DNA of 64,000 nt from Candidatus Fervidifonticultor secundus (GTDB lineage: Bacteria > Sysuimicrobiota > Sysuimicrobiia > Sysuimicrobiales > Humicultoraceae): positions 64,001 through 128,000 of the forward strand of contig JAVKIP010000005.1 of NCBI GenBank assembly GCA_031459385.1, written 5' to 3'. The position numbers were made by a program, and so were the translations under genes. The notes beneath the pieces were generated by a model that saw only the letters and a program-made list of their open reading frames with translations, was not told where the DNA came from and made no database searches. This document shows, one piece after another, positions 53,808-64,000 of this stretch. How positions within the stretch are numbered: the first letter of the stretch is position 1; each line of letters starts with the position of its first letter.

Positions 53808-55778
53808 CTAGTCACCTCCTGTTTTCTGGAGCGGCTGGTACGACGTGCCGGTCTCATCGTGGTACTTGACCTTGGTGAGGAACTCGACCCAGTTGAGACG
53901 GGCGGGCTGGATGATGTGGCCGGCGATCGTGAAGAGGAAGAAGATCATCTGGAACGCGATGCCGGCCAGCACGCCGATCCACACCGGCCCCAGCTGGCCG
54001 CCCAGCTCATTGGCGACGTTGGCCAGCACGGCCGCGGCCAGCCCCACGCCGAACAACCGGGCGTAGGACAGCACGTTGCCCATGCCCGAGATCGCCTCGA
54101 GCAGCCACATCAGGGCGAACCGGCTCACCACGACGCCGAGGGCGACGAACACCACGAAGGCCCCCAACAGCAGCATCCCGGGCCGCTGCACCGCCGCCGG
54201 CAACTGCCCGCCCATGGCGCCCAGCACCGCCACGAGCCCGAGCACGCCGGTCAACATCGCCAGCGACTCGAGCACGCCGAAGGTGTGCCGGTGCCGCAGC
54301 GCCACGACCAGGTGCAGCACGTAGCCCAGCACGATCTGCACCAGCCCCAACGCCACGGTGAACTTGAAGAACGCAATGGTCAACTCGACGCGGTTGAAGA
54401 GCGGATGGAGCCCGAAGTAGTGCTCGAGCAGGTTCCCGAACACCTCGAGGTACAGCACGCCGAAGATCATCGCCCAGGCGGCCAGGATGCGGATGATCCA
54501 CGACGCGTCGGCCAGGGCCGCGGGCCCCAGCTTCATGCCCAGCTGCACCGGGCCGACCCCCACCTCCCACGTCTCGCCGCGCCGGGCCTTGGCGCGCAGC
54601 CACCAGCCGAACGCGAAGAGCAAGGCGCCGTAGGCTACGTCGCCGATGACGATGCCGACGAACAGGGGGAAGAAGACCGCCAGGAAGATCGTGGGATCCA
54701 GGCTGCCGTAGCGCGGCGGCTTGAACAGGGCCAGCATGCGCTGGAACGGCCGGATCGGCGCGGGATTGTCCAGCAGCACGGGCACGTGCGCCGCCTCGTG
54801 GGGGTCGGCCGGCGCGTCGTAGACGACCACGTCGTGGGCAAAGCGCCTGCGCAGCACGCCGCGCACCTCGGCGACGCGCGGTGCCGGCACCCAGCCGTGG
54901 AGGATGAAGGTGTAGCGCGACTGGGCCAGCTGCGGCAGCGCGCGCAGCTGTGCCAGGCGGTCGGCCACCTCGGCGCGGATCGCCGCCACCTGCGGCCGGT
55001 ACCGCCGGGCCACCTCCTCCAGCTGGCGGCCGATCGCCTCCAGCTCGGCCGGCAGCTCGGCCCGACGGCGCTCCATGAGCCGCACCGCCTCCAGCGGCGG
55101 GTACGACGCGTAGCGCGCCGGCAGCCGCAGTTCGGAGATGCCGGCCTGGGTGAGGAAGCCCCGGACGGCCTCGGCATCGCGGTGCAGGTAGGCCACCACC
55201 ACGCCGATCTTGCCTTCCTCGATGATCCGGCTGACGACCTCGACGCGCCCGCCCGTGAGCGCCGTGAGCTGGTGGCGCAGCGCCTGGACCACGGCCAGGT
55301 CTTTGCCGCGCATGATGAAGCCCACGGACTCGAAGTTCCGGCTGCCCTGGAGCGCGCCCAGCAGGGGGGAGAGGACGCGCACCGCGCCCTCGTAGGTCCG
55401 GATGAGCTCCAGCTCCTCCTGGGCGTCCAGCCGGCGGCGCACCAGCGCCTGCACGTCGGCCTCGATGGCGGCCACCGCGGCGTCCAGAGCGGCCTCGTTG
55501 GCCCCAGCGATCGCCGCGGCGTCGGCCGCCGGTCCGCCGCCCGCCAGGGGTCCGCCGGCCGGCAGCAGCTTCAGCAGCCCGTCGGCCCGCATCAGCAGCC
55601 GCTCGAGGACCTGCTGCCGGGCGGCCGTGGCGTCGTCCACCTCCACCGCGCCCGCCGGGGCTTCCTCGGCCTCGATGCGGTCGACGTGCACGACGCCCAG
55701 GCGCTGCACCTCGTCCAGCACCGAGCCCAGCAGCCGCTTGGGCCCGAACACCAGTACCCGGTGCATCTCGACGATCAC
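53808..55778 (-). CDS. V/A-type ATP synthase subunit I (a)
   Basis: DPT, GDVAYG, LSYARL, RLNWVEF motifs. Confidence 0.95.
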   Translation of the reverse strand: MIVEMHRVLVFGPKRLLGSVLDEVQRLGVVHVDRIEAEEAPAGAVEVDDATAARQQVLERLLMRADGLLKLLPAGGPLAGGGPAADAAAIAGANEAALDAAVAAIEADVQALVRRRLDAQEELELIRTYEGAVRVLSPLLGALQGSRNFESVGFIMRGKDLAVVQALRHQLTALTGGRVEVVSRIIEEGKIGVVVAYLHRDAEAVRGFLTQAGISELRLPARYASYPPLEAVRLMERRRAELPAELEAIGRQLEEVARRYRPQVAAIRAEVADRLAQLRALPQLAQSRYTFILHGWVPAPRVAEVRGVLRRRFAHDVVVYDAPADPHEAAHVPVLLDNPAPIRPFQRMLALFKPPRYGSLDPTIFLAVFFPLFVGIVIGDVAYGALLFAFGWWLRAKARRGETWEVGVGPVQLGMKLGPAALADASWIIRILAAWAMIFGVLYLEVFGNLLEHYFGLHPLFNRVELTIAFFKFTVALGLVQIVLGYVLHLVVALRHRHTFGVLESLAMLTGVLGLVAVLGAMGGQLPAAVQRPGMLLLGAFVVFVALGVVVSRFALMWLLEAISGMGNVLSYARLFGVGLAAAVLANVANELGGQLGPVWIGVLAGIAFQMIFFLFTIAGHIIQPARLNWVEFLTKVKYHDETGTSYQPLQKTGGD

Positions 55779-56137
55779 GCGGGCCTCCCGCGCACCACGC
55801 GATCCACCACCAGCCGGACAGCGCGTGCGCGGTGCGCGGCCGCCTGGCGCCGCAGCGCCTCCACCTCCTGCTGCGCCCGCGCGTGGTACTGCGCCTGGAT
55901 CTGCGCCGTCTCGGCCGCGAGCCGCTCCTCGTGCTGGCGCGACAGCGCCGCCGCTTCCTCCCGCGCCTGCTGGAGGATCTGCTCGGCCTCGGCACGCGCG
56001 CGGGCCAGCAGCGCGGCGGCCTCCTGCCGCGCCGCGGACACCGTGACCTCGAGTTCCTTTTCCTTGAGAGCGATCAGCTGAAGGAGATTCTCGTCTTTGC
56101 GGTCGTCGTGCCCATGACCAGCCTTCTGCGCGCTCAT
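55775..56137 (-). CDS. V/A-type ATP synthase subunit G/H
   Basis: Ala/Glu/Arg coiled coil; first gene of the operon; coupled to subunit I. Confidence 0.8.
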   Translation of the reverse strand: MSAQKAGHGHDDRKDENLLQLIALKEKELEVTVSAARQEAAALLARARAEAEQILQQAREEAAALSRQHEERLAAETAQIQAQYHARAQQEVEALRRQAAAHRARAVRLVVDRVVRGRPA

Positions 56138-56211
56138 TCGGCCTGCCCCTTGGGAACCCGTCGCAAGAAACCCCCAGGTCGCCTCACCCTGGGGGCACAC
56201 ACACCGCCCGC

Positions 56212-56240
56212 AGGATAGCAAACGCCCCGGGGGGCGTCAA
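56212..56240 (-). promoter_or_regulatory. Sigma70 promoter of the ATP synthase operon
   Basis: TTGACG-N17-TATCCT with TG extension. Confidence 0.7.
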
Positions 56241-56321
56241 GCCGCGACAGATGCGGGCGGACGCGCACTGCGTGCTGCCGTCCGCGCATCCGCGCGTCCG
56301 CGGCGCCGCCGCGGTCGACCG

Positions 56322-57764
56322 TTAGAACCGGGCCAGGAGCCCCGCCGTCCGCACCAGCTCGATGAAGGGCTGGGGGAAGACGCCCACGAGCAGCGTGCCC
56401 ACGGCCGCCACGCCCAGCGCCAGCCGCAGCGGCGCGGGCTCCCCCAGCGCCGTCGGCGACGTCGGCGGCAGCAGGTACATGACGCGGATGACGTTCACGT
56501 AGTAGTAGAGGGCGATCACGCTGTTCACCACGCCCACCGCCGCCAGCCACAGCAGCCCGTTGTTGATGGCGGCGCCGAACAGGTAGAACTTGCCGAGGAA
56601 ACCCGCCGTGGGCGGAATGCCCGTTAGCGACAGCATGAACAGCGCCATGAGGGCCGCCAGGCCTGGGGCGCGCTGGGCCAGGCCCGCGTAGTCGGGGATC
56701 GCGTCGGAGCCCAGCCGCTGCCCCACGACGATGGCCACGAAGAACGCGCCCAGGTTGGTGAAGGTGTAGGCCAGCACGTACAGCAGCAGGCCCGGGGTCC
56801 CGAAGTCGCCCTGGTAGGCCGCCACGCCGATGAGCAGGAAGCCGGCGTGGGAGATGCTGGAATAGGCCAGCATGCGCTTGATGTTCCGCTGGGGCAGCGC
56901 CAGCAGGTTCCCCAGGGTCATGCTCAGCGCCGACAGTCCGGCGATCAACGTGATCCAGTCCACGGAGGTGGGCGCCAGGGCCACCACCAGCAGGCGCACC
57001 AGCGCTGCGAAGCCGGCGGCCTTGGACGCCACCGAGAGGTAGGCGGCGATCGGCGTCGGCGCGCCCTCGTAGACGTCGGGCGTCCACTGGTGGAACGGCA
57101 CCATAGAGATCTTGAACCCAAACCCTGCCAGCGACAGCACCAGCGCCACCACCACGGCCGGCTGCGGCGCGGCCCGGAGCTTGGTGGCGATGGCGTACAG
57201 GTTGGTCTCACCGGTCAGACCGTAGAGCACCGAGAAGCCGTACAGCATCACCGCCGAGGCGCCGGCACCGAACAGGAAGTACTTGATGCCCGCCTCGGTA
57301 CTGCGCGCGTCGGCCTTCAAGTAGCCCGCCAGCACGTAGGACGTCAGGCTCACGAACTCGATGGCCAGGGCCAGGAGGATCAGATCAGCGCTGCCGGCCA
57401 TGAGCACGAGGCCCAGGGCCGTGAAGACCAGCAGCGCGTACAGCTCGCCCTCGTGGGCGGTCTGGCCCCTGAAGTAGTCCATGGCCGACAGCGTCACGAG
57501 CACAGTGGACCCCACGACCACCAGTTTGAAGAAGGTCGCGAAGCCGTCCACCGCGTAGGTGTTGAAGAAGACGGTGCGGACCGGCTCCCCCAGCATGCTC
57601 ACGATGGGCCCGAGCCCCAGCACGAGGCCCACCACCGCCGCCCAGCCCACCACCGTCTTGCGGCCCGCGGGCAGCGCCAGGTCCAGCACCAGCAGGACCA
57701 GCCCGAGGGCCGTCAGCCAGTACTCGGGGCGCAGCGCCCAGAGCTCTTCCCGCGGAAAGGGCAT
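56322..57764 (-). CDS. nuoN: Complex I subunit N
   Basis: EAGIKYF, FKISMVPFHQWTPDVYEGAP, KRMLAYSSISH motifs. Confidence 0.95.
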   Translation of the reverse strand: MPFPREELWALRPEYWLTALGLVLLVLDLALPAGRKTVVGWAAVVGLVLGLGPIVSMLGEPVRTVFFNTYAVDGFATFFKLVVVGSTVLVTLSAMDYFRGQTAHEGELYALLVFTALGLVLMAGSADLILLALAIEFVSLTSYVLAGYLKADARSTEAGIKYFLFGAGASAVMLYGFSVLYGLTGETNLYAIATKLRAAPQPAVVVALVLSLAGFGFKISMVPFHQWTPDVYEGAPTPIAAYLSVASKAAGFAALVRLLVVALAPTSVDWITLIAGLSALSMTLGNLLALPQRNIKRMLAYSSISHAGFLLIGVAAYQGDFGTPGLLLYVLAYTFTNLGAFFVAIVVGQRLGSDAIPDYAGLAQRAPGLAALMALFMLSLTGIPPTAGFLGKFYLFGAAINNGLLWLAAVGVVNSVIALYYYVNVIRVMYLLPPTSPTALGEPAPLRLALGVAAVGTLLVGVFPQPFIELVRTAGLLARF

Positions 57765-57776
57765 GGCGGCCGCCCT

Positions 57777-59282
57777 CTAGCGCAGCGCGGTGACCAGAAC
57801 GGTCATGGCGCCGTTGATCACGTCCAGCAGCGGGCGGGGGTAGACGCCGAAGACCAGCATCAGCGCCGCCAGCGGCACCAGCGCCATCGCCTCGCGCCGG
57901 TCGAGGTCGGCCAACATGGCCCACTTCGGGTTCAGCGGGCCGAGGAAGATGCGCTGGATCGTCCAGAGGAACATGGCGGCCGAGAAGATCACGCCGGTCA
58001 CGGCGATGACGGTCAGCTCCGGGAAGATGCCGAAGGCGCCCACGAAGATGAGGAACTCGGCGACGAAGCCCATGAGCCCCGGCAGGCCCAGCGACGCCAG
58101 CATGGCCATGGTGGTGATCCCGGTGTACACCGGCAGCACCGCACCCAGGCCGCCGAAGTCGTCCACCCCGCGGGTGTGCGTCCGGTAGTCGTAGATCACG
58201 CCCACGATGAGGAACAGCGCGCCAGTGATGATGCCGTGAGCGATCATCTCGAAGACCGCACCGTTGAGGGCCATGGTGGCAGCGGCCGCCTTCTCCGGCA
58301 TCCCCACGGCCGCGGCGGCCGCGGCCGTGCCCAGCATGACGTAGCCCATGTGGTTGACGCTGGAGTAGGCCACGAGCTTCTTCAGGTCGGGCTGCGCCAT
58401 GGCCACCAGGGCGCCGTAGACGATGCCCACCAGGGCCAGCACCGCCACCACCGGCGCGTAGGCTTTGAACGCCTCGGGCAGCATGGGCAGGCTGACGCGC
58501 ACGAAGCCGTAAGTGCCCATCTTCAGCAGGATGCCCGCCAGGATCACACTGCCCGCCGTGGGGGCCTCGACGTGCGCGTCGGGCAGCCACGTGTGGAACG
58601 GCCACATGGGCACCTTGATGGCGAACGAGAGGAAGAAGCCCCAGAACGCCAGGGCCGCCAGCAGCGGCGCCCTGGCCAGCGGCTGCTGCTTGATGAGGTC
58701 GAGGATGCTGAATGTGCGCGGGTCGCTGTTGAAATAGAGCAGCAGGATCGCCAGCAGCATGGCCAGCGAGCCCACCAGCGTATAGAGGAAGAACTTGATG
58801 GCGGCGTACTCACGCCGCGGCCCACCCCAGATGCCGATGAGGAAGTACATGGGCACCAGGGTGATCTCCCAGAAGACATAGAAGAGGAAGAAGTCCAGGG
58901 CCACGAAGACGCCGTTCATGCCCGTCTCGAGCAGCAGGAACAGGAACAGGTATTCCTTCACCCGGTGGTCAACGCGCCACGAGTAGACGACGGAGAGCGC
59001 CGTCAGCAGCGTCGTGAGGATCAGCAGCGGCAGGCTCAGGCCGTCGATGCCCAGATGGTAGTTGATCCCCGCCGCGGGGATCCACGGCACCAGCGTCTCC
59101 AGCTGCATGCCCGGCCGGCCTACCTCGAAGGGGACCAGCACGTATACCGAGACCAGGAACGTGGCCAGCGAGGCGACCAGCGCCACCCAGCGCATCGACT
59201 CCTCGCCGCCCTTGGGGATGAGCAGCACGATCGCCCCCCCGACCAGCGGGAGGAAGACCGTGGTCGTCAGCAGCCAGTCCAT
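57777..59282 (-). CDS. nuoM: Complex I subunit M
   Basis: FWEITLVP, KVPMWPFHTWLPDAHVEAP, LLKMG, FVAE motifs. Confidence 0.95.
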   Translation of the reverse strand: MDWLLTTTVFLPLVGGAIVLLIPKGGEESMRWVALVASLATFLVSVYVLVPFEVGRPGMQLETLVPWIPAAGINYHLGIDGLSLPLLILTTLLTALSVVYSWRVDHRVKEYLFLFLLLETGMNGVFVALDFFLFYVFWEITLVPMYFLIGIWGGPRREYAAIKFFLYTLVGSLAMLLAILLLYFNSDPRTFSILDLIKQQPLARAPLLAALAFWGFFLSFAIKVPMWPFHTWLPDAHVEAPTAGSVILAGILLKMGTYGFVRVSLPMLPEAFKAYAPVVAVLALVGIVYGALVAMAQPDLKKLVAYSSVNHMGYVMLGTAAAAAAVGMPEKAAAATMALNGAVFEMIAHGIITGALFLIVGVIYDYRTHTRGVDDFGGLGAVLPVYTGITTMAMLASLGLPGLMGFVAEFLIFVGAFGIFPELTVIAVTGVIFSAAMFLWTIQRIFLGPLNPKWAMLADLDRREAMALVPLAALMLVFGVYPRPLLDVINGAMTVLVTALR

Positions 59283-59330
59283 CCCGATGCGTTCCTCCTC
59301 GTTCCTCCTCTGTGGCGTCCCGCGCGCCCC

Positions 59331-61277
59331 TCAGCGGGCCAGCCCGACCGCTAGCAGGACGATCACGCCCAGCGCGATGGCCAGCAGGTAGTTCTGCGCA
59401 CGGCCGGTCTGCACGACCCGCAGCAGGGTCCCCACCGTGCCCACCACGTAGCCGAGCAAATTGACCAGCCCGTCGACAACGTGCAGGTCGATGATGCGGT
59501 AGAGTCGGGCCAGCCCCACGATCCCCAGCCCGATGAGGTTCACCGCGGTGTCGACGATGTAGGTATCGAAGACGCGCAGGGCGCCGGCCGCCCACAGCGT
59601 CGTGCGCACGAAGACCCAGCCGTACAACTCGTCGACGAAGTACTTCCGGCTCACCAGCACGTACAGCGGGCCCGCGGCCCGCCGCAGGGTCGCAGACGGC
59701 ACGACCTTCCAGTGGTAGACGGCGGCCGCGGCCAGCATCCCGACACCGGCGACGCCCAGCGAGGCCAGCGCCAGCGCCGGGTCGAAGGCCGCCGCTTCCA
59801 CGCCTTCCAGGTGCAGGAAGCCGTGGAAGGGGTTGCCCAGGGGGGGCGCGCCCACGAATCCGATGACCGCCGAGAAGGCCGCCAGGATCCACAGCGGCCA
59901 GGTCATCACGGGCGGGCTCTCGTGGGGGTGCGCGTCATGCGCCCACCGCGGCGTTCCCGTGAAGACGTAGAAGATCACCCGGAAGACGTAGAAGGCGGTG
60001 AAGAACGAGGTCAGGGCGCCCAGGGCGAACAACGCGGGGCTGCGATGGAGGGCCTCGAGCAGGATCTCGTCCTTGCTCCAGAACCCCGAGAACGGAAAGA
60101 CGCCAGCGAGCGCCAGTCCCCCGACAACGAAGGTCCAGTACGTCGACGGCATGAGTTTCGCAAGGCCGCCCATCGCCTTGATGTCGTTGGTGTGCATGGC
60201 GTGCAGCACGCTGCCAGCGGCCAGGAACAGCAGGGCCTTGAAGAAGGCGTGGGTGACCAGGTGGAACATCCCCGCCGTATACCCGCCTGCGCCCAGCCCC
60301 AGCATCATCAGGCCGAGCTGGCTGATGGTCGAATAGGCCAACACCCGCTTCATATCGTCCTGCGTCACGCCCATGGTCGCGGCCATGAGGGCGGTGATGC
60401 CGCCGACCCAGGCGACCACCTCTAAGGCCTCCCGGCCGGGCGACGACAGGAACAGCGTGAAGGTCCGCGCCACCAGGTAGACGCCGGCGGCCACCATCGT
60501 TGCCGCGTGAATCAGCGCCGAGACGGGGGACGGACCTTCCATCGCATCCGGCAACCAGGTGTGGAGCGGCACCTGGGCCGACTTGCCGACCGCGCCGCCG
60601 AAGAGGAGCACGGCGGCCACGGTGAGCAGCGGCAGCCCGCCCACGGTCCGGCCCTGCAGCGCGCCGTCGCGGACCCTGGCGAAGATCTCCTCGAAGCGGA
60701 ACGTCCCCAGGGTCGCGAAGAGCACGAGGATCCCCAGGAACATGAAGAAGTCGCCGACGCGGGTCGTGACGAACGCCTTCAACGATGCCCGCGCCGCCGA
60801 GGGCTTTTCGAAGTAGAACCCGATCAGCAGGTAGGAGCACAACCCCACCAGTTCCCACCCGGCATACAGGAACAGCAGGTTGTTGGCCAGGACCAAGAGG
60901 AGCATGGAGAAGCCGAACAGCGACACGTAGGCGAAGAACCGGGGAAAGCGCGGGTGGCCGTGCATGTAGCCGATGGAGTACACGAAGATGAGCGTGCCGA
61001 CCACCGTCACCACCAGCATCATGACCGTGCTGAGCGGGTCGACCCGGAGCCCCAGGTCCAGGGGGACGTCGCCCACCACCATCCACCGGAGGTTCAGCTC
61101 CAGCGGCTCGGGTGTTTGCAGCATCTCGGCAAACACGCCCAGGGCCAGCACACCCGAGAGCGCCATGGCCGCCACGGCCACGTAGGCGCCGCTTCCCGTC
61201 AGCCGCCGCCCGAAGGCGATGATGAGCCCGCACGCCGCCAGCGGGAAGAGCGGAATCAGCCAGGCCAGCTCACGCAT
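59331..61277 (-). CDS. nuoL: Complex I subunit L (extended transverse helix)
   Basis: GWE, RVGD, GKSAQVPLHTWLPDAMEGP, HAFFKALLF, SKDEI, QTG motifs. Confidence 0.96.
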   Translation of the reverse strand: MRELAWLIPLFPLAACGLIIAFGRRLTGSGAYVAVAAMALSGVLALGVFAEMLQTPEPLELNLRWMVVGDVPLDLGLRVDPLSTVMMLVVTVVGTLIFVYSIGYMHGHPRFPRFFAYVSLFGFSMLLLVLANNLLFLYAGWELVGLCSYLLIGFYFEKPSAARASLKAFVTTRVGDFFMFLGILVLFATLGTFRFEEIFARVRDGALQGRTVGGLPLLTVAAVLLFGGAVGKSAQVPLHTWLPDAMEGPSPVSALIHAATMVAAGVYLVARTFTLFLSSPGREALEVVAWVGGITALMAATMGVTQDDMKRVLAYSTISQLGLMMLGLGAGGYTAGMFHLVTHAFFKALLFLAAGSVLHAMHTNDIKAMGGLAKLMPSTYWTFVVGGLALAGVFPFSGFWSKDEILLEALHRSPALFALGALTSFFTAFYVFRVIFYVFTGTPRWAHDAHPHESPPVMTWPLWILAAFSAVIGFVGAPPLGNPFHGFLHLEGVEAAAFDPALALASLGVAGVGMLAAAAVYHWKVVPSATLRRAAGPLYVLVSRKYFVDELYGWVFVRTTLWAAGALRVFDTYIVDTAVNLIGLGIVGLARLYRIIDLHVVDGLVNLLGYVVGTVGTLLRVVQTGRAQNYLLAIALGVIVLLAVGLAR

Positions 61278-61280
61278 CGG

Positions 61281-61592
61281 CTACCACTTCAGCACGTTGA
61301 TCTGGTCCACATGCACGGTCTCCAGGTTGCGGTAGGCGGCCATGACCAGGGCCAGGCCCACCCCGGCCTCGCACGCCGCCAGCGTGATGACCACCAGCGC
61401 GAAGACCTGGCCCGAGAACGCCGCCGGGGCCACGTACTTGTTGAAGGCCACCAGGTTGATATTGGTGGCGTTCAGCATCAGCTCGATACCCATCAGGATG
61501 GCCACCGCGTTCCGCCGGGAGAGCACCGCGTACAGCCCCAGGCAGAACAGCAGGGCGCTCACCACCAGGTAGTGCGACAGCCCGACCTGCAC
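61281..61592 (-). CDS. nuoK: Complex I subunit K
   Basis: [21 protein letters not shown] motifs. Confidence 0.95.
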
Positions 61593-61604
61593 GGTCCGCC
61601 TCCG

Positions 61605-62096
61605 CTACCGGTCGCGCCTGGCGACGATGATGGCCCCTATCAGCGACACCAGGAGCACCAGGCTCGTCACCTCGAAGACCAGCACCGCGCTGGTCAGGAA
61701 GGTGGTGCCGATGTGCCGGGCGGTGTACTGGGGCAGCGTGCCGCCCGGCTGGGGCCATGTCGTGTTCCCCAGCACCCAGATCAGCAGGCCTGCCAGCGCG
61801 GCGGCCGCCAGCAGGCCCAGGGGCCGCTGTCCGCTGGCCTGCCGGACCCGGGTGCCGGTGCCCCCTTCGGTGAGCATGATGACGAACAGAATCAGCACCG
61901 TAATGGCACCGGCGTAGATCAGCACCTGGATGCCAGCGACGAACTCGGCCTGCAGGAGGATGTAGAGGCCGGTGACGCCCAGGAAGGTCGGGACCAGCGA
62001 GAGCGCCGCCCGGACGATGTTGCCCGAGGTGACCACGACCACCGCCGGTACCAGGGTCACCAGCGCGAGGACGATGAAGGCCGCCAGCTCGCCCAT
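61605..62096 (-). CDS. nuoJ: Complex I subunit J
   Basis: AEFVAGIQVLIYAGAI, FEVTS motifs. Confidence 0.95.
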   Translation of the reverse strand: MGELAAFIVLALVTLVPAVVVVTSGNIVRAALSLVPTFLGVTGLYILLQAEFVAGIQVLIYAGAITVLILFVIMLTEGGTGTRVRQASGQRPLGLLAAAALAGLLIWVLGNTTWPQPGGTLPQYTARHIGTTFLTSAVLVFEVTSLVLLVSLIGAIIVARRDR

Positions 62097-62099
62097 GGC

Positions 62100-63071
62100 T
62101 CAGAAGCTGATCCGGTAGCCGGTGATCAGGATCCACACCAGCCCCGCCGGCAGCAGCAGCTTCCACGACAGGTTCAGCAGCTGGTCCAGGCGCAGCCGCG
62201 GGTACGTCCAGCGCATCCACATCAGGAAGAAGACCACCGCGTACATCTTGAGGAGAAACCAGACGAGCGGCGGCAGCAGGGGGCCCTTCCAGCCGCCGAG
62301 GAACAGCGTGGTGGCCAGGGCCGCCATGGCGAACATCTCCGCGTACTCGCCGAGCTGGAAGAGCGCGAACCGCATGCCCGTGTACTCGGAGAAGTACCCG
62401 GCCACCAGCTCCGACTCCGCCTCGGGCAGGTCGAAGGGCACCCGGTTGACCTCGGCCGTAGCCGCCACCAGGAAGATGACGAACGCGGGGAACTGGCGGA
62501 TCGCGAACGAGCCCAACCAGCCCTGCTGGGCCTCGACGATCCCCACGGTGGACAGCGTGCCCGCCTCCATGGCCACCGCGATCAGAGCCATCCCCATGGG
62601 CAGCTCGTAGCTGATCATCTGGGACGCCGACCGCAGGCCGCCCAGCAGCGCGTACTTGTTGTTGGACGCGAACCCGCCCGCCAGGATCCCGATGACGGTC
62701 AGGGAGGCCATGGCCGCGAAGAACAGCACCCCGATGTTGAGGTCGCGCACGATGAGCCCGGGCCCGAACGGGATCACGACCCAGTCCAGCAGCCCGGCCA
62801 CCGCCACGATGAGCGGGGCGGTGTTGAAGACGGCCACATCCGCGGCGCGGGGAGTGATGTGCTCCTTCTGGAGGAGCTTGATGGTGTCCGCCACGGTCTG
62901 CAGCAACCCCTGGGGGCCCACGTGCTTGGGCCCCAGGCGCGACTGGATCCATCCGCCGATCTTGCGCTCCAGGAGGACGCCCAGCATCGCGGTCACGACC
63001 GCCAGGAACGTGAAGACGACCACGGTGAGGCCTGCGGCCTTGGCCACTTCGAGGGGCCAGTTCACCGTCAT
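62100..63071 (-). CDS. nuoH: Complex I subunit H
   Basis: ERK...Q.R.GP, ADTIKLLQKE, RSASQMISYE, NRVPFDLPEAESELVAG motifs. Confidence 0.97.
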   Translation of the reverse strand: MTVNWPLEVAKAAGLTVVVFTFLAVVTAMLGVLLERKIGGWIQSRLGPKHVGPQGLLQTVADTIKLLQKEHITPRAADVAVFNTAPLIVAVAGLLDWVVIPFGPGLIVRDLNIGVLFFAAMASLTVIGILAGGFASNNKYALLGGLRSASQMISYELPMGMALIAVAMEAGTLSTVGIVEAQQGWLGSFAIRQFPAFVIFLVAATAEVNRVPFDLPEAESELVAGYFSEYTGMRFALFQLGEYAEMFAMAALATTLFLGGWKGPLLPPLVWFLLKMYAVVFFLMWMRWTYPRLRLDQLLNLSWKLLLPAGLVWILITGYRISF

Positions 63072-63099
63072 CGCGCCGCTCCCGGCGCGCGCGCCCGCC

Positions 63100-63459
63100 C
63101 TACATCCATTCCAGCGCGCCCTTCCGCCACGCGTAGGCCAGGCCCACCAGCAGGATGACCAGGAAGATCAGCATCTCCACGAACGCGAACTTCCCCAGCT
63201 CCCGGAAGACGATGGCCCAGGGGTAGAGGTAGATGACCTCGACGTCGAAGATGACGAAGACCAGCCCGAACAGGTAGTAGCGCACGTGGAACTGGGCCCA
63301 GGCCTGCCCAAAGGGCACGACGCCCGACTCGTAGGTCATGGTCTTCTGCGGGTGGGGCATGCGCGGGGCCAGGGCCCACACGATCGCCAGCGGCAGGGCC
63401 GCCATAACCAGTCCGCCGACCGCGAACACCCCGACGTACAGCCAGTCCAGCAGCAGCAT
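63100..63459 (-). CDS. nuoA: Complex I subunit A
   Basis: [23 protein letters not shown] motifs. Confidence 0.96.
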
Positions 63460-63627
63460 TCAGATCCCCCGCGCGCAGTTCACCGCGCGCCGGTGCACCG
63501 GAGGTCGGGGCAGGCGCCCGCAGGCGCGCCGGGGCGGCCTCCGCCTCAGCCGCGGCATCTGTGAGATCTGCGTCAGAAGATCGGGCGAGCCCGTCCTGTC
63601 AGGACACGACGCGTCAGGACCCACGCC

Positions 63628-63656
63628 AGCGTACCGGGTTCGTCACCACGCGTCAA
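63628..63656 (-). promoter_or_regulatory. Sigma70 promoter of the nuo membrane-arm operon
   Basis: TTGACG-N17-TACGCT, about 170 nt upstream of nuoA. Confidence 0.7.
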
Positions 63657-63743
63657 GAATCCTACGCGGCGGCTGCGCGGCGCGGGGGCCGGCGTCCGGC
63701 GCAGCCGATGCGGGGGCCCGCGTCGGCACGGTGCGGAGCAGCC

Positions 63744-64000
63744 CTAGCGCCGCTGCGCCGTGGCCGGGCGCCGCGCGCGCGAGGGCCGTCGCCGGGGCCG
63801 GGGCGGGCGGCCCGTCGCCGTCACCCAGAGGTCCAGCACGGCGCGTGCCAGGCGCAGGGGGTCGTGGCGCAGCAGTTCCTCCTCGCTCACCAGGGGCGCG
63901 CCCACGGCCACCAGCCCCATCGCCTGGATTTCGGCCAGCGTAGGCGCCACGGGCTGGCTGCCCTCGGCGGCGTACCGCGCCAGCAGCGCACGGTTCTGCG
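63744..64000 (-). CDS. yvcK: YvcK/GlmR (CofD-like) protein, 3' end only
   Basis: RYAAEGSQPV...LVSEEELLRHDPLRLA resembles the YvcK C-terminal RHD motif. Confidence 0.65.
   Translation of the reverse strand, partial: QNRALLARYAAEGSQPVAPTLAEIQAMGLVAVGAPLVSEEELLRHDPLRLARAVLDLWVTATGRPPRPRRRPSRARRPATAQRR

Follow-up and report, generated by a model that had tools for sequence, protein, structure and literature searches.

A compact cluster of genes for the hydrophobic subunits of respiratory complex I, nuoA-H-J-K-L-M-N, lies near one end of the 64,000-nucleotide stretch of DNA from Candidatus Fervidifonticultor secundus analysed here (the window), with none of the peripheral-arm genes beside it, and this raises the question of which enzyme the encoded membrane arm serves. 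An earlier reading of the letters alone (the sequence-only reading) took the cluster for a stand-alone proton-pumping module that docks onto peripheral arms encoded elsewhere, possibly interchangeable or non-canonical ones. Our analysis indicates that it is very probably the membrane half of a second, 11-subunit complex I lacking NuoE, NuoF and NuoG, whose quinone half is encoded by nuoB-D-I-C on another contig. The window corresponds to positions 64001-128000 of contig C45 in a metagenome-assembled genome (MAG) of 59 contigs (3.30 Mb, 97.6% complete, 5.5% contamination, ~72% G+C). The lineage, CSP1-3 or Sysuimicrobiota, is labelled Armatimonadota in NCBI.

Membrane-arm genes of the window

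All seven open reading frames (ORFs) are on the minus strand, from 63459 down to 56322, with no nuoB, nuoC, nuoD or nuoI interspersed and no frame interrupted. Genes of this second set carry the number 2 and those of the canonical operon the number 1; lengths are in amino acids (aa) and E is the expectation value.

63100..63459, minus strand: nuoA2, 119 aa; PF00507 (E 1.8e-37) and NuoA NCBIfam models; TYESG loop retained
62100..63071, minus strand: nuoH2, 323 aa; PF00146 (E 6.7e-118); NF004741 above cut-off
61605..62096, minus strand: nuoJ2, 163 aa; PF00499 (E 1.8e-35)
61281..61592, minus strand: nuoK2, 103 aa; PF00420 (E 2.1e-29); NF004322 above cut-off
59331..61277, minus strand: nuoL2, 648 aa, with a long C-terminal extension; PF00361 and PF00662; NF005141 at 677 bits, above cut-off
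57777..59282, minus strand: nuoM2, 501 aa; PF00361; TIGR01972 at 598 bits
56322..57764, minus strand: nuoN2, 480 aa; PF00361; TIGR01770 at 407 bits

The gaps calculated from the ORF coordinates are 28 (A-H), 3 (H-J), 12 (J-K), 3 (K-L), 48 (L-M) and 12 (M-N) nucleotides. Coverage of the Pfam profiles is near-complete for all seven proteins (E 1.8e-37 to 6.7e-118 overall, with 1.8e-35 and 2.1e-29 for NuoJ2 and NuoK2), and the top NCBIfam model for each ORF is its own Nuo subunit, with the Mrp, Hyf and Fpo models scoring lower. The description of seven intact, tightly packed membrane subunits in the sequence-only reading thus agrees with ORFs, Pfam and NCBIfam, and its two gaps, 28 nucleotides between nuoA and nuoH and 3 between nuoH and nuoJ, were reproduced. 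It had also described an acidic NuoH loop and a YESG loop in NuoA as kept, and both can be read in the proteins, the former as NRVPFDLPEAESELV at residues 209-223 of NuoH2 and the latter within TYESG.

Residues of the proton paths are likewise in place. The motifs, set without a curated alignment as a Glu in transmembrane helix (TM) 5, a Lys in TM7, a Lys or His in TM8, a Lys or Glu in TM12 and two Glu in NuoK, were found by motif search in NuoL2, NuoM2 and NuoN2 (the TM5 Glu of NuoN2 by eye), and both membrane glutamates of NuoK2 are present when its motif is read by eye. Of the long plus-strand ORFs that overlap the cluster, two were searched, and neither matched a Pfam or NCBIfam model; at a G+C content this high, such ORFs are unlikely to be genes.

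One subclade of relatives (L038, L047 and L050) carries nuoH2 orthologues of 392-399 aa as compared to 323 aa here, implying an insertion of ~70 residues.

Complex I genes in the rest of the genome

Family searches over the whole genome of the organism located the remaining complex I genes on two other contigs, C23 and C58.

C23 ~62400-76780, minus strand: complete canonical operon nuoA-B-C-D-E-F-G-H-I-J-K-L-M-N
C58 113762-114070, plus strand: Rieske [2Fe-2S] protein gene; PF00355
C58 114074-114634, plus strand: nuoB2, 186 aa
C58 114659-115762, plus strand: nuoD2, 367 aa
C58 115778-116281, plus strand: nuoI2, 167 aa
C58 116278-116898, plus strand: nuoC2, 206 aa

NuoA, NuoC, NuoD and NuoH are each encoded exactly twice in the genome, and antiporter-like subunits six times, half of them on C45 and half on C23. 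The back-to-back genes nuoB2-D2-I2-C2 (C58:114074-116898) form the only quinone module besides that of the C23 operon. Since the canonical operon is complete with its own arm, it needs no second one; and since two arms and two quinone modules are present, of which one pair lies in the full operon, the C45 arm would pair with the C58 module. The sequence-only reading had noted the absence of peripheral-arm genes at the locus, which holds, nuoB, nuoC, nuoD and nuoI of this set being encoded on the other contig. It had itself set against its proposal the case of one ordinary peripheral locus elsewhere, that is a simple split operon, and nuoB-D-I-C on C58 is such a locus.

The C58 module appears equipped for electron transfer. 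Alignment to solved structures shows that NuoB2 retains CC...C...C, the four Cys ligands of cluster N2. The motif CxxCxxCxxxCP occurs twice in NuoI2 with all eight Cys intact, and in NuoD2 His20 of QHPSTHG and the Tyr of MDY align to H38 and Y87 of Thermus Nqo4. QHPSTHG stands at the N-terminal site of NuoD2 and DVDR at its C-terminus, which places it outside the large subunits of group 4 membrane-bound [NiFe] hydrogenases (Ech/Mbh/Hyc), NuoD-like proteins with cysteine motifs that bind Ni-Fe. NuoC2 carries a proline/alanine-rich low-complexity stretch of ~45 residues ahead of its 30-kDa domain, the Pfam match beginning at residue 63.

The other redox genes of the genome were also sorted. Five genes resemble NuoB or hydrogenase small subunits (PF01058), and the three of them other than NuoB1 and NuoB2 adjoin standard [NiFe] hydrogenase large subunits (PF00374). 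Two NuoF-like genes (PF01512) are present, one in the C23 operon and one, a diaphorase gene, beside one of these three hydrogenase loci, on C13. According to the PF01512 search and the inspected neighbourhoods, no NuoE/F/G-type gene stands beside either the membrane half or the quinone half. PF00346 gave three matches, two of them within the C58 gene, so that only D1 and D2 were matched in the genome and therefore no group-4 hydrogenase-type module was found. Among redox modules without a membrane arm of their own, the sequence-only reading had named nuoB/C/D/I genes and a group-4 hydrogenase; the first exists on C58 and the second did not appear.

The two transcription units together would build one ordinary L-shaped enzyme, a quinone-reducing, proton-pumping complex. 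In this scheme, a low-potential donor, for which reduced ferredoxin is the leading candidate, would pass electrons through the two NuoI clusters to cluster N2 of NuoB and on to quinone at the NuoD/NuoH site, whereupon the C45-encoded arm would pump protons. The separate 14-subunit, NADH-dependent complex I would operate alongside. We regard ferredoxin as the donor with about even confidence. Six POR_N matches in the genome represent several 2-oxoacid:ferredoxin oxidoreductases, and reduced ferredoxin should therefore be available; POR_N and hydrogenase loci are found on contigs C4, C13, C14, C15 and C58. For 11-subunit enzymes in general, the part of PMC11238625 used here describes the donor as unknown, with ferredoxin proposed, and it cites Moparthi and Hagerhall (2011) for the proposal of a docking platform for several donors. 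A forward run and a reverse run from quinol to ferredoxin, driven by proton-motive force, would both be compatible with the residues observed.

In relatives, nuoB2-D2-I2-C2 is surrounded by suf genes upstream and by genes of a membrane-anchored molybdenum cofactor (Mo-co) oxidoreductase and of 2-oxoacid dehydrogenases downstream. The Mo-co oxidoreductase (sulfite-oxidase fold, 567 aa) just past nuoC2 was considered as an electron input. It clusters with homologues in 15 of 21 loci. At its N-terminus lie hydrophobic segments and then, ahead of the Mo domain, an RR-type signal-like motif. It is probably outward-facing and therefore was not taken as a partner. Across C58:106066-118585 and the related loci L136-L155, the upstream suf operon has a Rieske gene of its own, and in this genus a second one stands directly before nuoB2; the latter clusters with the Rieske of the nearby suf operon.

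Conservation and ancestry of the two halves

Contigs from public hot-spring metagenomes, from all four runs (which belong to one study, three of them possibly being the source of the assembly itself), span both the A/H and the H/J junction. The H/J junction is covered by pieces over 61500-62235 and the A/H junction by pieces over 62640-63800, 62207-63800 or 62640-63589, with 0 or 1 difference per piece and none at the junctions themselves; short-sided joints of 22-25 letters in the contig lay-out were disregarded as likely cross-matches. We also compared 26 loci from independent assemblies, with NuoH at 60-96% identity to NuoH2. All 26 keep the order A-H-J-K-L-M-N without B/C/D/I matches, as the sequence-only reading had asked of relatives. 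nuoA is directly upstream of nuoH in 25 of them (the remaining locus begins inside nuoH) and nuoJ directly downstream, again in 25 (the remaining locus stops after nuoH). A further 54 loci stand at a greater distance (NuoH identity of 56% or below), and none of them is limited to A-H-J-K-L-M-N; in most, B-C-D, sometimes together with E-F-G, precede nuoH, and nuoI is found downstream of it.

A 59-contig MAG with some contamination could in principle contain a collapse at the A/H or H/J junction, or mis-binned contigs. The bridging runs and the agreeing assemblies exclude the collapse, which the sequence-only reading had named as a danger to its case. As for mis-binning, G+C is 72.1-72.8% on all three complex I contigs (C45, C23 and C58), and the 4-contig relative G002 has the three loci on one contig, where H2 is at 0.468 Mb, the canonical operon spans 2.014-2.020 Mb and D2 is at 2.197 Mb. 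An artefact of either kind is therefore a negligible prospect.

The split is stable over the phylum. The GTDB phylum has 73 genomes with completeness of at least 85%, all in one order, and of these, 73 have NuoH2-type genes and 71 have NuoD2-type genes. A set of 40 relatives, taken without a completeness filter (it includes the unpublished G010 and G019, whose omission changes nothing), has H2 in 40 and D2 in 35, and G023 adds a fragment of B2 where one of its contigs ends. The order B-D-I-C is kept in 29 of 29 loci of relatives as far as each locus extends. The H2 and D2 loci are never adjacent, and in G002 they are 1.73 Mb apart.

Quick maximum-likelihood trees of 27 NuoD and 27 NuoH sequences, with support from the Shimodaira-Hasegawa-like approximate likelihood ratio test (SH-aLRT) only, place the split-type NuoD2 and NuoH2 in a clade of 14 rows whose membership is identical in the NuoD and the NuoH tree (SH-aLRT 95 and 99). 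Besides the split-type sequences, the clade has seven rows, which are NuoEFG-less operons of Bacillota, Firestonebacteria and Omnitrophota, with the order A-B-C-D-H-I-J-K-L-M-N, and two Actinomycetota loci whose gene order is unusual. D1 and H1, in turn, both group with an Anaerolineales 14-subunit operon. On these sequences the NuoH2 and NuoD2 trees are congruent, and both halves share their ancestry with the NuoEFG-less operons.

NuoD2 carries a further mark of this ancestry. It lacks a segment of ~25 residues corresponding to Thermus Nqo4 307-337, which is absent from each of the seven NuoDs sampled at loci that lack an E-F-G block between nuoD and nuoH; all 12 NuoDs with a NuoF/G match between these genes contain it, as does D1 of the same genome. 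Cyanobacterial NdhH retains the ~25 residues at the place of the deletion, so that the deletion is to be read as a lineage marker and does not prove that a contact is missing. Conservation, trees and deletion together support the view that a single 11-subunit operon gave rise to both halves.

Several points weigh against pairing the two loci. Four of the 40 relatives have H2 and canonical B1/D1 only, with D2 and B2 not found (G018, 92% complete; G026, 89%; G020, 76%; G029, 72%). The two halves share no neighbourhood and no recognised common regulatory motif, and what links them is genomic evidence. The Rieske protein, a candidate donor encoded directly upstream of nuoB2 here, is so placed in only 9 of 29 relatives and is a weak lead. 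In addition, the rows of the trees were picked by similarity to NuoH2, and the tree search was a quick one. With regard to the first point, the summed incompleteness of the 40 relatives predicts ~3.5 misses as compared to the four observed, and the four module-less genomes are therefore what chance loss gives.

The same four genomes could be cited in favour of an Mrp-like function, in which the cluster would exchange cations for protons with no peripheral arm at all. Mrp antiporters, which consist of MrpA/D with MrpB, C, E, F and G, have no equivalent of NuoH and NuoA, the subunits that make up the quinone cavity of complex I; both are encoded here, and the Mrp NCBIfam models stay far below their cut-offs (e.g. 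NF009287, 317 vs 937 bits). A matching quinone module is present in 71 of the 73 genomes, and the four relatives without one fit MAG incompleteness. A role of this kind has been proposed for the arm-only nuo operon of marine actinomycetes (Salinispora, Streptomyces, Kocuria), whose genes run in the same order and which PMC6676996 reads as a pump; for the present cluster it seems exceedingly improbable.

A free-standing pumping module, docking on several interchangeable or non-canonical peripheral arms (both quinone modules, or one of hydrogenase type), would explain why the cluster is a transcription unit of its own with a conserved promoter-like block, why it lies far from every peripheral-arm gene and why the loops facing a quinone module are retained in NuoA2 and NuoH2. 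However, arms and quinone modules are equal in number, exactly two of each, the canonical operon brings its own arm and no group-4 hydrogenase-like large subunit was found in the genome. Moreover, H2 and D2 have one ancestry and H1 and D1 another, and H2 and D2 are conserved together across the phylum. Of the original proposal, the peripheral arm encoded elsewhere stands, whereas interchangeable or non-canonical docking is highly unlikely in view of the 2:2 count, the congruent trees and the missing group-4 module.

It is also conceivable that the canonical operon lends its NADH-oxidising NuoEFG module to the split enzyme, which would then be a second NADH:quinone oxidoreductase. The genome has one NuoEFG set that could be lent, and the donor of 11-subunit enzymes is generally unknown according to the part of PMC11238625 used here. 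However, NuoD2 and NuoH2 belong to a lineage of operons without these genes, and for Desulfitobacterium PMC11238625 reports no covariation between NuoE/F-like proteins and the 11-subunit enzyme. We consider the borrowing unlikely.

Known relatives and flanking features

An 11-subunit complex I split over two loci can be set beside several known enzymes. Cyanobacterial and chloroplast NDH-1 has eleven Nuo-type core subunits, no NuoEFG, a ferredoxin donor and genes dispersed over several loci, and it carries extra photosynthesis-specific subunits. Among solved structures, NdhH ranks second as a match to NuoD2 (E 5e-114); in contrast to NuoD2, it keeps the ~25 deleted residues, and the present lineage is not phototrophic. 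The best match is Nqo4 (E 1.9e-117) of the canonical 14-subunit enzyme of Thermus thermophilus (PDB 4HEA), with which the split enzyme shares the fold families, the N2 ligands and the His and Tyr of the quinone site, while it differs by the absence of the N-module, by the NuoD2 shorter by ~25 residues and by the separated genes. The closest likeness in content is to the NuoEFG-less 11-subunit complex I, with the identical eleven subunits, no dedicated NuoEFG, the same NuoD/NuoH clade and a short NuoD. The difference from it lies in the division into A-H-J-K-L-M-N and B-D-I-C, so far apart in the near-closed relative, in the order B-D-I-C as compared to B-C-D...I, and in the coexistence with a full 14-subunit complex I.

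The partial nuo operon of marine actinomycetes (Salinispora, Streptomyces SM17 and SM18, Kocuria) is also arm-only, has the same order and is additional to a full nuo operon, as described in the part of PMC6676996 used here. Its nuoA and nuoH are separated by one additional, hypothetical gene, in which it differs from the present cluster, and it is read there as a proton pump of marine adaptation. A partner quinone module is not named in that part of the article, and we liken the two operons by gene order only.

A published description of the split in this phylum was not found in a search that covered main texts and not supplements. 'nuo' occurs 0 times in the main text of PMC11604079, and 'complex I', 'NADH', 'nuo' and 'ATP synthase' occur 0 times in PMC11962464; the supplements of both may list nuo genes. 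New here is the stable division of the genes into A-H-J-K-L-M-N and B-D-I-C throughout the phylum; it does not add up to a new system. A false lead is thereby removed, as the cluster is no orphan proton pump, and an uncultured phylum of hot springs and soil appears to keep two complex I enzymes, one NADH-dependent and one of eleven subunits, plausibly ferredoxin-linked and stably split. The lineage offers a natural case in which to study the co-regulation and assembly of the two halves, and the electron donor of 11-subunit enzymes, a question raised in the part of PMC11238625 used here. The NuoD deletion, which tracks with NuoEFG-less operons in our sample, could serve as a simple annotation marker.

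The features flanking the cluster in the window are as follows.

63744..64000, minus strand: 3' end of a yvcK/CofD-family gene that runs past the window; PF01933 (E 4e-109); outside the complex
63628..63664, minus strand: candidate promoter block TAGGATTCTTGACG-N17-TACGCT, ~170 nucleotides ahead of the nuoA2 ATG
53808..56136, minus strand: start of a V/A-type ATPase operon, with a small coiled-coil first gene (56136-55775) and then subunit I (55778-53808)

In an alignment of eight genomes, the block at 63664-63628 is the sole well-conserved part of the 284-nucleotide spacer upstream of nuoA2, and its core is TTGACG-17-TACGCT (63656-63628). A consensus promoter scan made no call upstream of nuoA2, the block falling below its threshold. 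The dedicated promoter of the sequence-only reading is thus partly borne out, by a promoter-like sequence within a conserved block and was left uncalled by the scan. The nuoA2 leader (63460-63627, ~170 nucleotides) shows little conservation outside the closest relatives, and no Rfam match was found in it or anywhere in 55000-64000 at E up to 0.1. The yvcK-like gene noted upstream by the sequence-only reading does belong to the CofD/YvcK family and lies on the same strand; it is found upstream in 22 of 26 related loci, and here a RapZ-like gene stands ahead of it.

On the other side, the V/A-type ATPase operon begins ~100-190 nucleotides after nuoN2 on the same strand (C45:112708-119778 including its downstream part), and a promoter-like TTGACG-17-TATCCT is present at 56240-56212, ~80 nucleotides past the end of nuoN2. 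The A/B ATPase subunits (PF00006) are encoded farther downstream, and a second A/B-type ATPase gene pair is on contig C6. Of the 18 related loci that include nuoN2, 15 have atpI after it, and the other three end within ~1.1 kb of nuoN2. This neighbourhood invites the idea that the arm is made independently, pairs with B1/D1 or B2/D2 or translocates ions on its own, and so tunes the pumping of protons or ions to ATP synthase output. We hold this to be very improbable; if it were true, the phylum-wide layout upstream of the V/A-type ATP synthase operon would not be a neutral rearrangement.

Side observations were made among the distant loci. The Calditrichia-type loci L067, L074, L075 and L080, otherwise 14-subunit-like, gave no NuoB or NuoI match by tblastn with the present queries, and the Eisenbacteria locus L052, likewise 14-subunit-like otherwise, gave no NuoI match in the same search; this suggests that they may be other partial splits of the quinone module. 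In two loci from Actinomycetota/Thermoleophilia MAGs (L056 and L069), nuoA-B-C-D-H is followed by a NuoF-like gene and, several kb on, by I-J-K-L, and their NuoD is of the short form and is placed with the NuoEFG-less clade.

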